Below are positions 5,428 to 16,541 of a stretch of DNA of 64,000 nucleotides, piece after piece. The stretch is from an uncultured Gammaproteobacteria bacterium (GTDB lineage Bacteria; Pseudomonadota; Gammaproteobacteria; Steroidobacterales; Rariloculaceae). The stretch spans positions 4,617,971 to 4,681,970 of the forward strand of contig OY969712.1 of NCBI GenBank assembly GCA_963702105.1, given 5' to 3'. Under the pieces are notes generated by a model. That model did no database searches. It worked only from the letters and a program-made list of their open reading frames with translations, and was not told where the DNA came from. Positions within the stretch are counted from its first letter, which is position 1. Every line of letters starts with the position of its first letter. A program made the translations under genes and the position numbers.

Positions 5428-5559
5428 GGCAACTCCTACCGGCGAAAAGGGGTCAGAGCCCTTTTCGGAGGATAAAGGGCTTTGATCCGGGCTTTGCTCC
5501 GGGCGGTGTCACGGGCCCAGACACGAGTTTTGTTCCGGGCTGCGACCGCTTCTTCCGCT

Positions 5560-10320: not shown

Positions 10321-11787
10321 ATGGCGAAGCGCCCGCTCGAAGGCAGCTACGTCTCGACGCTCGGCGTCGCGCTGTTTGCGCTCGTGCCGTATATCCTCGT
10401 CGTCAGCGGCGCGAACCTGTACCGCGCCGGAGTCATCCGGGACCTCGGCGCGACGCACGGCGCCCTGTCGGTCATCGGCGGCATCTCGACGGCCGGCTAC
10501 GCGTTCGGCGCGCTCCTCGCGGGCGACCTCAACAGCCGCATCCCGCAACGCCGGCTGTTCTTCGCCTGCGAAAGTCTCTTCATCGTCGGCTGGATGCTCT
10601 GTGCCGTCGCGGGCGGCACCGTGACGTACGGCGCGGGGCGCGTCCTGGCGGGATTCGCGACCGGAACCCTGCTCGTGACGGCCATACCGCCCGTCGTCCA
10701 GCGCTTTCCGCCTTCGCGCATGCCGCTCACGGCGGCGTTCATCAACGTCGGGTTCTTCGGTGCGATCGCGGGCGGCCCGCTGCTCGGCGGCGCCGTCGGC
10801 GCCTTCGACGCATGGCGCTGGATGTATGCCGGCTTCGCCGCAGTCGGCGTATTCACGGTCGCGATCGCGTTTCTCGCGCTGCCGACGACGCCGCCGCCGA
10901 ACCCGGATCTGAAGGTGGATTACTGGGGAATCGGGCTCGGGCTCGCGGCGGCGGCGCTGCCGTTCTTCGCGAGCGGCGAGCTTGCCGCGCACGGCTTCGG
11001 CACGGCCGTGGTCACGGCCCCGCTCGCCGTCGGCGTGGTCGCGTTCCTTGTCATGCTGCTCGTCGAGTACCACCGTCGGGAGCCGCTCGCGCCCGTCAAG
11101 AAGATGTGGAGCACGATCCCCGTCGTCGGGACGCTCGTCGCGATGATCGGCGGCGGCGCGTTCGTGACCTTCGTGATCCTCGCGGTCGAGTACCTGCTGG
11201 CCGTCATGCAGCGCGGCCCGCTGCCGACGGGGCTCTCGTTCTGGCCGCAGCTGCTCGGCGCCTTGATCACGGCCGGCCTGCTCGGCGTTCTGTTTCGGAC
11301 GCGCTTTCTGCCCCTGCTCGCGTTCGGCGGACAACTCGTGCTGCTCGGCGGCGGCGCCCTGCTCATGTTCTACCAGGGCGGCTCGAGGGCTCAGCTCCTG
11401 GCCGCGGTCGGCCTGCTCGGCCTCGGCGCCGGGGCGACCGTCAGCCCGGGGCTCTTCCTCGCCGGCATGTCGCTGCCGACCCTGCTGCTCGGGCGGCTCT
11501 TCGCGCTCATCGAGCTCGTGCGCTCCGTCGCGGATTTCATCCTCGCGCCCGTCATGGTCAAGATCGCGAAGGTCACGTCGGCGGGCTCGGGGCTGACCTC
11601 GCCCGGCGTACACCGCGCCATCTTGATCACGCTGCTGATTACGCTCGCCGGCCTGGCGATCTCCCTCGCGATCTACGCCGCCGGCCGCACGGGCCTGCCG
11701 AAACCCGACCTCGAGGCATGGATCAAGCGCAAGCAGACGGCCCTGAAGTCGCCGCCGCTCGGCCAAGGACTGCGCGGCCGCGTCTAG
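10321..11787 (+). CDS. MFS transporter
   Basis: 488 aa, polytopic and hydrophobic throughout, with MFS-style loop motifs. No substrate inference possible. Confidence 0.8.
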   Translation: MAKRPLEGSYVSTLGVALFALVPYILVVSGANLYRAGVIRDLGATHGALSVIGGISTAGYAFGALLAGDLNSRIPQRRLFFACESLFIVGWMLCAVAGGTVTYGAGRVLAGFATGTLLVTAIPPVVQRFPPSRMPLTAAFINVGFFGAIAGGPLLGGAVGAFDAWRWMYAGFAAVGVFTVAIAFLALPTTPPPNPDLKVDYWGIGLGLAAAALPFFASGELAAHGFGTAVVTAPLAVGVVAFLVMLLVEYHRREPLAPVKKMWSTIPVVGTLVAMIGGGAFVTFVILAVEYLLAVMQRGPLPTGLSFWPQLLGALITAGLLGVLFRTRFLPLLAFGGQLVLLGGGALLMFYQGGSRAQLLAAVGLLGLGAGATVSPGLFLAGMSLPTLLLGRLFALIELVRSVADFILAPVMVKIAKVTSAGSGLTSPGVHRAILITLLITLAGLAISLAIYAAGRTGLPKPDLEAWIKRKQTALKSPPLGQGLRGRV

Positions 11788-12416
11788 TGCGCCGGAGCGG
11801 TCGGGCGCTCAGCCAGCTGCGCCCGCTCCTCGGGCGTCAACACGCGCGCTACGGCGAGCGGCCTCCCCGAAGCCGGGTCGAAGAACGCCGACTTGCGCTG
11901 CTCGCCGCGCAGCATCCGGCCGAGGAGCGTCGCGGCGAGGCGCAGGACCATGCCGAGCGTGAATCTTTCGGTGGCCGGCTCCGGCAGCGTGCCGCGGGCG
12001 AACTTGCCGAAAACGCGCCACTGCACCGGGCCGAGCGCGGCGTCGCGGCCGGTGCCGGGGACGCTCGAATCCACGAACGAAAGGATCAGGCCGACGAACG
12101 GGATCCGCCCCGTCGGCATCGTATTCGCGATCGGTGTATTGCAGCAGGCGGCGTACCAGCGGAACGGGCCGCGCGGCGTGACGCGCACGCTCGCGAGCCG
12201 CTCGACGCCTTGGGTGATCTCGACGAGGGCCGGCGAGGTCTGGTAGATGTCGGTGCCGCCGTGCTCGTCGAGGAGCTCTGCCGGACGGCCGAGGAAGGCC
12301 GCGAACGCCTGGCAGTCGTCGCAGTAACAGACGACGCGTTTTCCGGCGGCGGGCGAGGCGTGTAAGGCGCCGCGCACGGCTCCGCAACGACACGAAAGCG
12401 GCAGATCGGTTGACAT
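11784..12416 (-). CDS. Cys-rich GFA/DUF6151-like zinc-binding protein
   Basis: 210 aa. CRCGAVRG..VCYCDDCQAFA..RWYAACCNTP cysteine pattern. 4-nt convergent overlap with the MFS gene end. Confidence 0.5.
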   Translation of the reverse strand: MSTDLPLSCRCGAVRGALHASPAAGKRVVCYCDDCQAFAAFLGRPAELLDEHGGTDIYQTSPALVEITQGVERLASVRVTPRGPFRWYAACCNTPIANTMPTGRIPFVGLILSFVDSSVPGTGRDAALGPVQWRVFGKFARGTLPEPATERFTLGMVLRLAATLLGRMLRGEQRKSAFFDPASGRPLAVARVLTPEERAQLAERPTAPAH

Positions 12417-12700: not shown

Positions 12701-12988
12701 ATGAACATGTACGGCAACAACATTTGGGTTCTCATTCCCATCGTCGCGATCGTCTGCGGGTTCCTGACCCAGTGGATGCGGATCAAGCACGGTTACCCGC
12801 TGCGGGATCGCGGTGCCCGGCGCCGGTATTCGGCCGATCTCGAGTCCGAGGTCGACGGGCTCACGAAGAAGATCGCGTCGCACGAGGCGACGATCGCGAA
12901 GCTCGAGGAGCGCGTGCGTGTGCTCGAGCGCATCGCGACGGACGCCTCGGCGCGACTCGGCGAGGAAATCGAGCGGCTCAGAGCCTAG
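12701..12988 (+). CDS. small single-TM coiled-coil protein (PspB-like architecture)
   Basis: 95 aa. N-terminal TM helix (NIWVLIPIVAIVCGFLTQWM), then a basic stretch and a heptad-like ..IAKLEERVRVLERI... Its AT-richer upstream region ends in ..AATTAAGCGATG. Architecture resembles PspB; homology not verified. Confidence 0.5.
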   Translation: MNMYGNNIWVLIPIVAIVCGFLTQWMRIKHGYPLRDRGARRRYSADLESEVDGLTKKIASHEATIAKLEERVRVLERIATDASARLGEEIERLRA

Positions 12989-13028
12989 GGGCACAGCCTC
13001 GAGGCGTGAGCGTTGCGCTGGGCGAGGC

Positions 13029-13808
13029 GTGAGAACGGTCACCGCAACCCGCTATGTGACGCCGCTGCGCGAGGGCGGCTCGCTGCCGGCCATCGTCGAG
13101 GCCGACGACGAAGGGCTCTATGTGCTCAAGTTCCGCGGTGCCGGTCAGGGGCCGAAAGTGCTCGTGGCCGAGCTCGTCGCCGGCGAGATCGCGCGCGCCG
13201 CCGGCCTGCCCGTGCCCGAGATCGTCTTCGTTGAGCTCGATCCCGACCTCGCGCGCACGGAGCCGGACCCTGAGATCCAGGACCTCATCAAGGCCAGTGC
13301 GGGGCTGAATCTCGCGCTCGACTATCTGCCTGGCTCCGTCACTTTCGACCCCGTGGCGACTACGCCCGACCCGGAGTTCGCCTCGGCCGTCGTGTGGTTC
13401 GACGCCTATGTCACGAACGTGGACCGCACGGCCCGCAACACCAACATCCTCGAGTGGCATCGGCGGCTCTGGCTCATCGATCACGGCGCAGCGCTGTATT
13501 TTCACCATGGCTGGGACGAGAACTTCGCCGCGCACAGCCGCACGCCGTTCGCGCGCGTCAAGGATCACGTGCTGCTCGAATTCGCGGCGGAGCTGGCCGA
13601 GGCCGACCGGCTCATGCGCACGCGTGTGACGCCGGCCGTCATCGAGAACGCCGTCAAGCTCATCCCGGCGGGCTGGCTCGCGGAGGACTCGCCCGTGGGC
13701 GGCCGCGACCGGCAGCGGCGAGTCTACGCCGAGTACCTCACGGCGCGGCTCGAGGCGAGGCAGGTCTTTGTCGAGGAGGCGATCCGTGCGCGATCACTGC
13801 ACGTATGA
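13029..13808 (+). CDS. HipA-like (HipA_2 / PI3-4-kinase-fold) putative Ser/Thr kinase
   Basis: In ORF 12813..13808. GTG 13029 is preceded by GGGCGAGG. ..RYVTPLREGGSLPAIVEADDEGLYVLKFRGAGQG.., catalytic-loop-like NVDRTARNTN and LIDHG motifs. The upstream part of the ORF is low-complexity Arg/Ser and was rejected. Confidence 0.7.
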   Translation: MRTVTATRYVTPLREGGSLPAIVEADDEGLYVLKFRGAGQGPKVLVAELVAGEIARAAGLPVPEIVFVELDPDLARTEPDPEIQDLIKASAGLNLALDYLPGSVTFDPVATTPDPEFASAVVWFDAYVTNVDRTARNTNILEWHRRLWLIDHGAALYFHHGWDENFAAHSRTPFARVKDHVLLEFAAELAEADRLMRTRVTPAVIENAVKLIPAGWLAEDSPVGGRDRQRRVYAEYLTARLEARQVFVEEAIRARSLHV

Positions 13809-14703
13809 CTACGCCGTCGTGCGCGTCGTGCCGAAGGTGGACCGCGGGGAGTTCGTCAACGTCGGGGTGATCCTGTCGTGCCCGGCGCTGGACTTTCTCG
13901 AAGCGCGAATCGACCTCGACGAGGCGCGGCTGCTCGGGCTGGATCCGACCGTCGACGTCGAGGCCGTGCGCATGCACCTCGAGTCGATTCCGGTGGTCTG
14001 TCGCGGCGGACGCCGCGCCGGCCCGCTCGGCAGGCTCACGCAGCGCGAGCGCTTCCACTGGCTCGTCGCGCCGCGCAGCACGATGGTCCAGACCTCGGCC
14101 GTGCATGCCGGGCGGTGCCAGGACCCCGAGGCCGCGCTGCAGCATCTGCTGCGCAGGATGGTCAGCGCGCCTGGCGCGCTCGAAGAGAGGACACCCCGTA
14201 TGCTGATTCGTGAGGAGACGCCCGAGGACCGCGAAACGGTGGACGCCCTCATCGCGTCCGAGTTCGACACCGGCGCCGAGGCCGACTTCGTCGGGGCGCT
14301 GCGAGCGGGTCCACGGCCCGTCGTCTCGCTCGTGGCCGAGGAAGGCCGCGCCGTCGTCGGGCACGTCCTGCTCGCCCCCGCGCCGCTCGCGGGCGCGGCC
14401 GGCCCCGAGCTCATGGGGCTCGGCTGCCTGGCCGTGCTGCCCGAGCATCAGGGCCGCGGCATCGGCAGCGCGCTGCTTTCGGCCGCCCTCGACCGCTGCC
14501 GGGCGCTCGGCTTCGACGGCGTGGTCGCCCTCGGGCACGCGCGCTTCTATGCACGGTTCGGCTTCGGGCCGGCCGCGCGCTTCGGCCTACGCTTCCGCCA
14601 CTCGGTGCCGGAGGAGGCGTTCCTCGCGATCGAGCTCGTGCCCGGCGCGCTCGAGGGGCGCGGAGGCACCGTCGAGTATCTCTCGGCGCTGAGAAAGAAG
14701 TAG
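13768..14703 (+). CDS. DUF3037 domain fused in frame to a YhbS-like GNAT acetyltransferase
   Basis: 311-aa ORF without an internal stop. Residues ~10-132 (YDYAVVRVVPKVDRGEFVNVGVIL..) are DUF3037-like. Residues 145-311 (MLIREETPEDRETVDALI..LPEHQGRGIGSALL..ARFYARFGF) are GNAT. The start (ATG 13768 or GTG 13786) overlaps the kinase 3' end. The internal ATG 14200 has its own GAGAGGA Shine-Dalgarno. Confidence 0.65.
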   Translation: MSRRRSVRDHCTYDYAVVRVVPKVDRGEFVNVGVILSCPALDFLEARIDLDEARLLGLDPTVDVEAVRMHLESIPVVCRGGRRAGPLGRLTQRERFHWLVAPRSTMVQTSAVHAGRCQDPEAALQHLLRRMVSAPGALEERTPRMLIREETPEDRETVDALIASEFDTGAEADFVGALRAGPRPVVSLVAEEGRAVVGHVLLAPAPLAGAAGPELMGLGCLAVLPEHQGRGIGSALLSAALDRCRALGFDGVVALGHARFYARFGFGPAARFGLRFRHSVPEEAFLAIELVPGALEGRGGTVEYLSALRKK

Positions 14704-14723
14704 CGTTAAAAGAAGTAGCGTTA
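14694..14723. repeat. perfect 15-bp tandem duplication (AAAGAAGTAGCGTTA x2) spanning two convergent stop codons
   Basis: Units 14694..14708 and 14709..14723 are identical. Unit 1 holds TAG 14701..14703 (+ gene). Unit 2 holds TAA 14723..14721 (- gene). Confidence 0.9.
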
Positions 14724-15236
14724 CAACAGCAGCTGCCAATAACCCACGTCCACCCAGCGGCCCAGCTTGAAGCCCGCCTCGCGAAAGCGGCCGACCTCCT
14801 GGAAGCCGAACCGCTCGTGCAGCGCGATGCTGGCAGGGTTCGGCAGCGCAATGCAGCCGACGGCGGCATGCAGCCGCAGGCGTCGGAGCTCATCGATGAG
14901 CGGCCGATAGAGCGCCCCGCCGATTCCGCGTCCCCTCGATTCAGGGTGCAGGTAGACGGTCGTCTCGGCCGTAAAGCGGTACGAGGCACGCGCCTTCCAG
15001 AGACCGGCGTAGGCGAAGCCCACGACCGAGCCGCCGCTTTCCGCTACGAGCCAGGGGAAGCGCTCGAGCGTCTCCGCGATGCGCCGGCCCATTTCCTCGA
15101 CCGTCACGGGCGTCTCTTCGAACGACACCACCGTGCCGCGCACGTAATAGTCGTAGATTCCGCAAATCTGTTCGGCGTCCGTCCCTCGAACGGGGCGAAC
15201 GAAGACGCCTTCGGGGTCGGCCGCGGCGATCATCAC
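14721..15236 (-). CDS. GNAT acetyltransferase, phosphinothricin/MnaT-type
   Basis: 171 aa. ..IYDYYVRGTVVSFEETPVTVEEM.., ..RGRGIGGALYRPLI.., ..ASIALHERFGFQEVG.. are typical of PAT-family GNATs. Confidence 0.75.
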   Translation of the reverse strand: MMIAAADPEGVFVRPVRGTDAEQICGIYDYYVRGTVVSFEETPVTVEEMGRRIAETLERFPWLVAESGGSVVGFAYAGLWKARASYRFTAETTVYLHPESRGRGIGGALYRPLIDELRRLRLHAAVGCIALPNPASIALHERFGFQEVGRFREAGFKLGRWVDVGYWQLLL

Positions 15237-16190: not shown

Positions 16191-16541
16191 GTGGACATCT
16201 ATCACATCTGGTGCAATCTCAAGTCCGGCATCCGTGATACCGAGTTCGCGGCCCAGCTCGCCGCGTTTCTCGGGCGTCTCGAACGCGAGGGGCGCATCCA
16301 GGGCTATCGGATCACGCGCTGCAAGCTCGGGCTGCGTCCGCCCGCGCTGCGCGAGTTTCACATCACCGTCGAGTTCGACGACCTCGCACAGATGCAGAAG
16401 GCATTCGACGCGGCCTCCGCTCGCGCGGACCCGATCGAAAGCCTGCATTCCGCCGTAAACTCGAAGGTGCAGGACGCGTTCTTTGCGCTGTACCGCGACT
16501 TCCCGGACGCGAACAGGGTCGAGGGGCAAGAGCGCTTCTAG
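16191..16541 (+). CDS. small conserved hypothetical protein (DUF6614-like)
   Basis: 116 aa. MDIYHIWCNLK..RCKLGLRPPALREFHI..LHSAVNSKV..FALYRDFPD recalls the DUF6614 family from memory. Confidence 0.45.
   Translation: MDIYHIWCNLKSGIRDTEFAAQLAAFLGRLEREGRIQGYRITRCKLGLRPPALREFHITVEFDDLAQMQKAFDAASARADPIESLHSAVNSKVQDAFFALYRDFPDANRVEGQERF

Follow-up and report, generated by a model that had tools for sequence, protein, structure and literature searches.

Does a run of three tightly packed genes in the genome of an uncultured gammaproteobacterium form a new toxin-like module, or does it contain one that is already known? The genes lie in a 64,000-nucleotide (nt) stretch of contig OY969712.1, hereafter the window, where they occupy positions 12701 to 14703. 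They encode a small membrane protein of 95 amino acids (aa), a HipA_2-type kinase, and a protein in which a DUF3037 domain runs on into an acetyltransferase of the GNAT fold. An earlier note, made from the letters and a list of their open reading frames (ORFs), had described three closely spaced frames on one strand and proposed that they might form an uncharacterised module. All three frames are indeed present, both in the ORF list and in the sequence. We consider it probable that the kinase/DUF3037 pair represents a chromosomal copy of a module known from earlier work, PDC-M66 (also DS-6 or HipAD), that its second gene ran on into a housekeeping GNAT gene, and that the membrane protein is most likely unrelated. 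The name HipAD was reportedly given by Brenes & Laub in 2025.

The upstream gene of the pair (13029..13808, plus strand) starts with GTG and encodes a 259-aa Ser/Thr kinase of the HipA_2 family, the putative toxin. It scored over the gathering score of Pfam HipA_2 (PF20613; E = 7e-20) and matched the PADLOC model PDC-M66A (E = 3e-23) as well as PHROG 3162 (E = 6e-22). In an alignment of 24 diverse sequences, 120 of the 259 kinase positions were invariant. Among them were the motifs that had first suggested catalytic function, NVDRTARNTN and LIDHG, which showed no variation: residues N130, D132, N137, N139, D151 and H152 were unchanged across the homologues, as were R14-E-G-G-S18-L-P and K34. 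We propose that N130-V-D132-R-T-A-R-N137-T-N139 is the catalytic loop and L-I-D151-H-G the Mg-binding motif. By analogy, R14-EGGSLP-20 would act as the Gly-rich loop and Lys34, within YVLKF, as the ATP lysine; the sequence EGSTQP...YVLK of the HipA protein of Escherichia phage PhiR5_1, a relative discussed below, falls at the same place, a part of the protein in which the structure model has low confidence. The ratio of nonsynonymous to synonymous substitution rates (dN/dS) between the window kinase and its counterpart in a sister metagenome-assembled genome (MAG) was 0.10.

An AlphaFold2 model of the kinase was poor (predicted local distance difference test score, pLDDT, 61) because the available homologues are all at least 71% identical. 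When this low-confidence model was searched with Foldseek, the top matches in the PDB were all Helicobacter pylori CtkA (prob 0.99, E = 4e-3). When solved structures were searched with the kinase, by sequence and by profile, no relation to HipA or HipT emerged, and a profile comparison with E. coli HipA gave no match at an alignment depth (Neff) of 1.5. Because the comparisons with solved structures and with E. coli HipA found nothing, the link to HipA rests on the Pfam and PADLOC hidden Markov models (HMMs), on the alignment with the phage HipA and on the Foldseek match to CtkA.

The reading frame that follows is open from 13768 through 14703, and we assign to it a fusion ORF of 305 aa (13786..14703, plus strand) that comprises a DUF3037 domain (approximately 13810-14163), a linker (14164-14199), the GNAT (14200-14700) and a stop codon (14701-14703). 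Residues 15-132 of the frame that opens at 13768 match Pfam DUF3037 (PF11236; E = 9e-43). The DUF3037 part also matches PADLOC PDC-M66B (E = 2e-9), covering only positions 3-130 of the 281-position profile.

How regularly the two genes travel together was addressed by a census. A protein database held more than 8,000 relatives of the kinase, the best 120 of which were full length and 71-100% identical. A scan of one genome per species returned at least 517 kinase loci, and the best 80 were examined (L003-L082); three could not be evaluated for DUF3037, as they lay at contig ends. In all 77 evaluable loci, distributed over many phyla, a DUF3037 ORF lay directly 3' of the kinase gene, so that the adjacency is not a matter of chance. 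The partner in this clade is usually a bare domain with a median length of 134 aa, and the 120 best-scoring DUF3037 relatives listed were all standalone proteins of 128-157 aa that carry no further domain. The pairwise identities of the kinases correlated with those of their partners (r = 0.78), showing that the two proteins co-evolve in sequence.

The junction between the genes (13773..13808, plus strand) is conserved as well. Two possible starts for the DUF3037 frame, 13768 and 13786, had been considered, with an overlap of 23-41 nt. The evidence favours GTG 13786 over 13768: homologue N-termini begin V/M-x-D-H-C-T-Y-D-Y and align to V-R-D-H here, and a Shine-Dalgarno sequence, GAGGAGG (13773-13779), lies 6 nt 5' of this GTG within the 'EEA' codons of the kinase. 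The kinase stop codon occupies 13806-13808, and the two ORFs overlap by 23 nt (13786-13808). Of the 77 evaluable loci, 69 had an overlap of 23 nt and a further seven one of 11 nt, and the aligned DUF3037 start codon was GTG in 56 and ATG in 18. GGAGG or GGAGGA inside the 'EEA' codons was kept in Gammaproteobacteria, Cyanobacteria, Acidobacteriota, Binatia, Rhodothermales and Chloroflexia. This conserved overlap, together with the embedded Shine-Dalgarno sequence, is strong evidence for the translational coupling of kinase and DUF3037 that the packing of the frames had suggested. As the ribosome-binding site of DUF3037 lies inside kinase codons, synthesis of the partner is possible at any time when the kinase is being translated.

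In contrast to the kinase, DUF3037 gave a confident AlphaFold2 model (pLDDT 90.7), in which a three-stranded sheet at the N terminus is followed by a helical middle part, two short strands and helices at the C terminus. A Foldseek search of this model against solved structures found no relative (all E > 1, also for the HipS and HipB entries); among phage proteins, a few uncharacterised ones have the same fold, with TM-scores of 0.5-0.64. We rejected a HipS-like or HipB-like partner after finding neither a Pfam helix-turn-helix (HTH) or HipS-like match nor a Foldseek match to the model. Because a confident model has no solved fold relative, DUF3037 is neither HipS-like nor HipB-like. In the homologue alignment 27 of its positions were invariant, many of them polar.

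Both proteins have relatives with demonstrated activity against phages. Within the Retron-Sda1 operon, protection against phage Bas51 comes from a HipA-like kinase together with a DUF3037 protein and needs none of the retron parts; deletion of the kinase abolishes defence, and deletion of the DUF3037 gene is toxic (PMC12548924). The authors of that study identify the pair as PADLOC PDC-M66 and describe it as resembling DS-6 (PMC12548924). DS-6, since renamed HipAD, was reported with DefensePredictor: DS-6A is a HipA-family kinase and DS-6B combines DUF3037 with DUF1829, a catalytic mutant confers no defence, and AlphaFold3 predicts an A:B interface (interface predicted template modelling score, ipTM, 0.76-0.79) (PMC13092281). 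The module had been called uncharacterised in the earlier note; with the PADLOC candidate PDC-M66 as its family and with DS-6/HipAD and the Retron-Sda1 operon as validated anti-phage relatives, that description no longer holds. The PDC-M66 matches and the validated relatives support one of the readings that the note had left open, a two-component, toxin-antitoxin-like module of abortive-infection type.

A closer look at one annotated pair illustrates how far the resemblance goes. Escherichia phage PhiR5_1 (PV340545.1) has two genes in the interval from cI to kil, annotated 'HipA toxin' and 'HipD antitoxin', and their products match the same Pfam models (HipA_2 and DUF3037) and the same PADLOC PDC-M66A/B models as the window proteins. 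The window kinase is 28% identical to the phage HipA (E = 1e-15), with NVDRT..N.N and LIDH in register, that is, with N-x-D-R-T...N-x-N and L-I-D-H aligned; the window DUF3037 is 21% identical to HipD (E = 6e-8). In the window and in the phage, the kinase gene precedes its partner on the same strand and the ORFs overlap, by 23 nt in the former and by 4 nt in the latter. Unlike the window clade, HipD and DS-6B bear a C-terminal domain of about 150 aa (DUF1829, predicted to contact DNA), and HipD covers positions 6-271 of the PDC-M66B profile rather than 3-130; in the window itself, a GNAT stands there instead. In the phage, the pair is part of a prophage immunity region (cI-kil), whereas the window copy has a chromosomal housekeeping context, and the window clade is far more conserved across phyla.

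Other known systems share some of these features. As in the Retron-Sda1 pair, in which kinase toxicity and DUF3037 neutralisation are independent of the neighbours, a HipA-like kinase adjoins a DUF3037 protein and the cassette is placed beside unrelated genes. By contrast, the C terminus of the Retron-Sda1 DUF3037 protein resembles a type III-A1 retron DNA-binding protein, where the window has a host-derived YhbS-like GNAT, and neither the ORF list nor Rfam revealed a reverse transcriptase or non-coding RNA here. The window kinase also recalls those of the short Hip kinase modules, being core-only at about 260 aa and of putative HipA fold, with a putative Gly-rich loop and with catalytic and Mg-binding motifs (PMC8262856), and, as in hipIN, hipJS and hipMP, the putative antitoxin gene lies downstream of the kinase gene (Gerdes et al. 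2021, PMC8262856). It differs from HipBA and HipBST in that the partner is neither HipB (HTH) nor HipS-like, and the nearest solved kinase fold is that of H. pylori CtkA.

The distribution of the pair combines strong constraint with changing location. Between phyla, kinase identity averages approximately 68% (68-71%) and DUF3037 identity approximately 62%; within phyla, kinase identity is 69-72% in Acidobacteriota and Gammaproteobacteria and 82% in Cyanobacteria. The GC content of the cassette follows that of the host flanks (r = 0.94), ranging from 0.52 (host 0.46) up to 0.67 (host 0.65), so most copies are not very recent arrivals. Pairs of Microcoleus genomes shared their flanks in approximately 41-55% of cases, against about 5% for Pyrinomonadaceae and about 0-2% for Gammaproteobacteria, and the neighbourhoods that we inspected were metabolic and variable between genomes. 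The cassette behaves as a unit of two genes that is autonomous, as toxin-antitoxin logic would have it. This combination of protein constraint and mobility is unusual for a defence toxin. The closest unfused relative (L088, 7001-8927), with a kinase 81% identical to that of the window, lies in a wholly different context, with CitMHS upstream and a hexapeptide-repeat protein (Pfam Hexapep) 70 nt downstream of the cassette.

If the pair is complete with a bare DUF3037 domain, where does the GNAT come from? In the window, the DUF3037 frame runs without a stop into a domain matching Pfam Acetyltransf_1/7/9, and the best solved relatives of this half are 4rs2 (E = 8e-21) and 4zbg (E = 6e-19); one relative is called YhbS by JGI. 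The read-through into a YhbS-like GNAT had thus been recognised correctly, and its proposed role as a module component akin to TacT, AtaT or ItaT was not borne out. We rejected a toxin of the TacT/AtaT type, as no TacT, AtaT or ItaT chain appeared at E <= 1 among the solved relatives. The window GNAT shares with those toxins the GNAT fold and an acetyl-CoA binding motif, and differs from them in being of YhbS type and orthologous to a standalone chromosomal gene without an antitoxin partner. That gene is found on a related metagenomic contig (L089), on which MsrQ, MsrP, GNAT and bactofilin (75%, 80%, 60% and 82% identity, respectively) are arranged and oriented as they are in the window, with no kinase, DUF3037 or membrane peptide. 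Homology to the L089 GNAT begins exactly at an internal Met of the fusion, ATG 14200.

The internal start still has the features of a gene of its own (14186..14202, plus strand): AGAGGA at 14186-14191 stands 8 nt before ATG 14200, and GAGAGGAC and the ATG are also conserved in the sister MAG (L001). Translation may also begin here, which would release a free GNAT of 167 aa. Because the L089 GNAT is standalone and homology starts at the internal Met, we conclude that the fusion formed when a cassette was placed upstream of a resident gene and the DUF3037 stop codon disappeared. The GNAT is therefore a resident YhbS-like gene that was fused secondarily, a passenger rather than an original component of the module. 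Fusions of this kind are rare: in a collection of 5.8 billion sequences, DUF3037::GNAT occurs in only three protein clusters, namely the window's own (100%), that of the sister MAG (79% identical) and that of a JGI contig (65% identical). Neither DUF3037 nor the kinase was found near more distant YhbS-like GNATs at 80 loci, and a metagenome scan with the GNAT half yielded only relatives of at most 47% identity (49% on one partial segment), none of them near DUF3037, with no further fused or intermediate forms.

GNAT is not the only enzyme joined to DUF3037. C-terminal fusions to peroxiredoxin (three clusters, 66-69% identity), pyridoxamine 5'-phosphate oxidase (PNPOx) and a GDSL lipase were also present (P0004, P0008, P0009, P0053 and P0063). 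Where the fused enzyme is peroxiredoxin, its own Met is still present after the linker, a pattern that looks like the GNAT read-through. P0013 and P0048 also appear to be DUF3037 fusions, yet they have the look of artefacts that arose by deletion or frameshift. In P0013 (288 aa), the first approximately 125 kinase residues are joined to a full DUF3037 via an Arg-rich out-of-frame stretch, and the protein is probably a deletion/frameshift pseudogene product without the kinase catalytic core.

The first of the three genes encodes the membrane and coiled-coil protein (12701..12988, plus strand; 95 aa), in which we found the hydrophobic stretch IWVLIPIVAIVCGFLTQWM followed by a heptad-like helix, in agreement with the transmembrane helix and coiled coil described earlier. 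A 99-aa orthologue in the sister MAG is 75% identical with a dN/dS of 0.25, and the ORF is thus a real gene. This is the only other genome with an orthologue (L001/L003, partial copy L002); the gene was absent from the 77 other cassette loci, which cover every other genome sampled, and from L089. No Pfam, NCBIfam or PADLOC family reached threshold for the protein, the best being a weak match to DivIC (0.009). A 36%-identical full-length homologue, the only one found in the annotated plasmid collection, is encoded on a megaplasmid of Sphingomonas parapaucimobilis (NZ_CP155749.1; L172 3495-3791) directly after pspF-pspA-pspB-pspC, with no kinase near it. To the Sphingomonas PspB itself the window protein is similar in a short helix motif only (E = 0.034); it has no Pfam or NCBIfam PspB match, and no psp genes adjoin it in the window. 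Because the gene is missing from other cassettes and its annotated homologue follows pspABC, it is probably independent and outside the module, contrary to its tentative inclusion by the earlier note. Its product is probably related to envelope stress, and the Sphingomonas homologue suggests an unnamed Psp-associated small-protein family. Upstream of the gene, the segment 12590-12640 is near-identical to L001 (approximately 5485-5520) amid diverged intergenic DNA, reading CCCCCCCTTTAC(C/G)CC...GCAGCCGGAGTAATCTTG; this could be a promoter, and a strict sigma-70 scan made no call there.

Our comparisons demonstrate, at the level of sequence, PDC-M66 family membership, intact catalytic motifs, obligate linkage and coupling of the two genes, autonomy of the cassette and secondary fusion to the GNAT. 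By analogy with the validated relatives, the kinase would be a growth-arresting toxin whose activity is needed for defence, and the DUF3037 protein would bind and neutralise it. Phage infection would then upset this balance, freeing the kinase and aborting the infection. In the lineage of the window, the cassette came to stand immediately 5' of a resident GNAT gene of YhbS type, in the interval from msrQP to the bactofilin gene. As the DUF3037 stop codon is missing, the ORF continues through a poorly conserved linker of about 12 codons into a GNAT that keeps its own Shine-Dalgarno sequence and ATG.

Several observations weigh against this account. The validated relatives are just 28% (kinase) and 21% (DUF3037) identical to the window proteins and bear the C-terminal domain of about 150 aa that is missing here; the kinase found no match in profile searches of solved structures or in the comparison with E. 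coli HipA, and its model reached a pLDDT of only 61. A check of genomic location, which the earlier note had proposed, revealed no defence island among the neighbourhoods inspected. For a defence toxin, the short-partner clade is oddly conserved, with kinase identity between phyla (approximately 68%) about as high as within them, a kinase dN/dS of 0.10 and cassette GC tracking that of the host (r = 0.94). The invariant polar residues of DUF3037 are as compatible with an enzyme or a ligand-binding protein as with a simple inhibitor. In a different explanation, the short-partner HipA_2/DUF3037 pair would be a strongly constrained cellular signalling or stress pair and not primarily a phage-defence toxin-antitoxin system. 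The kinase would phosphorylate a conserved cellular target or DUF3037 itself, for instance at the invariant PRST..QTS, and DUF3037 would be a sensor, an enzyme or a partner-switching regulator. This would account for the identity of both proteins (kinase about 68%, DUF3037 about 62%) across Cyanobacteria, Acidobacteriota and Gammaproteobacteria, for cassette GC ameliorated to each host, for the low dN/dS and 120 invariant positions of the kinase and the 27 invariant positions of DUF3037, for a partner without a DNA-binding or other C-terminal domain, and for metabolic neighbourhoods. However, the cassette occupies differing loci even within one family, with flanks shared in approximately 0-7% of genome pairs within a family or class, as would be expected of an autonomous mobile module rather than of a gene in a core pathway; both proteins fall into the HMM families of validated HipA and HipD; no conserved third gene or target gene stands beside the cassette; and the strict coupling of toxin and then partner is typical of toxin-antitoxin logic. 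We regard a signalling pair as rather unlikely, though it is the main alternative.

The fusion raises a question of its own, as its frame has been kept in all three lineages, including one in-frame 3-residue indel in the linker, and both the DUF3037 and the GNAT halves are under purifying selection (window versus sister MAG: dN/dS of DUF3037 0.35, linker 0.46, GNAT 0.26). These two facts mean that the fusion may not be neutral. A tethered acetyltransferase might modify the kinase or its target, or make neutralisation dependent on acetyl-CoA and hence metabolically gated. Maintenance of the frame down to 65% identity and an intact acetyl-CoA motif, QGRGIG, in the GNAT would agree with such an adaptive role; the lower identity of the GNAT to its L089 counterpart (60%, against 75-82% for the flanking genes) may mean faster evolution after fusion. 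Yet the GNAT is standalone at the orthologous locus of a cassette-free relative and retains its own translation start, fused forms make up only three clusters in the whole collection while the best 120 DUF3037 relatives listed and 77 loci are unfused, DUF3037 is also joined to unrelated enzymes, and its C-terminal tail naturally varies from 127 to about 157 aa, so that extensions are tolerated. An adaptive fusion thus appears distinctly improbable. Still more doubtful, to the point of being hardly credible, is a three-component system in which the membrane peptide acts as sensor or effector for the kinase and the fusion. Its gene shares the strand of the kinase gene at a distance of 40 nt, the gene order is kept in the sister MAG, the peptide is under purifying selection (dN/dS 0.25) and no terminator-like site was found between the genes. 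Against this, the peptide gene is missing from 77 of 77 other cassette loci, the gap widens to 119 nt in the sister MAG, the sole homologue in annotated plasmids sits in a psp operon with no kinase near, and no PADLOC model matches the peptide. We retain the reading of a PDC-M66 cassette with an incidental GNAT and an unrelated membrane protein.

The surroundings of the locus, between msrQP and the bactofilin gene, are unremarkable for defence. Three neighbours identified with Pfam are a DUF6151/GFA-like protein (11784-12416, minus strand), a second GNAT, of Acetyltransf_4 type, that is convergent with the fusion (14721..15236, minus strand), and a DUF6614 protein between the bactofilin gene and ftsH (16191-16541, plus strand); none of them is defence-related. 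Between the convergent GNAT genes lies a perfect 15-nt tandem duplication, two copies of AAAGAAGTAGCGTTA (14694..14723). The first copy holds the stop codon of the fusion (TAG 14701-14703) and the second holds that of the minus-strand GNAT gene (TTA 14721-14723 = TAA); the duplication is absent from the sister MAG (L001). Promoter and terminator scans and Rfam returned nothing in or around the locus, and no flanking direct or inverted repeats pointed to the footprint of an insertion. A direct repeat of 13 nt (12461 and 14774) falls within coding sequence and is no more than chance would produce.

What is new here is an architectural variant of a known pair, with a short partner and a GNAT read-through fusion; the finding is real and largely explained. 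For annotation, an apparent three-part mystery module becomes a member of a recently validated anti-phage family, to which the GNAT and the peptide are incidental. The GNAT case also shows how a 'fusion' can be made by a mobile cassette reading into a resident gene, one that would mislead inference of function from guilt by fusion. The most interesting remainder is the extreme conservation of the short-partner clade. It is conceivable, if unlikely, that this clade (260-aa kinase and approximately 134-aa DUF3037; present in soil and freshwater bacteria by the thousand) has branched off from the HipAD defence family with a function of its own. The exceptional constraint on the pair would then stem from its acting on, or sensing, some cellular component that is conserved universally, DUF3037 would serve as an enzyme or ligand sensor and not as a passive inhibitor, and the fusions would have been selected. 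If so, read-through fusions to GNAT, peroxiredoxin, PNPOx and GDSL enzymes would couple control of the kinase to metabolic or redox state. The short-partner clade offers a natural minimal system for learning what DUF3037 does alone and why a supposed defence toxin is so constrained.

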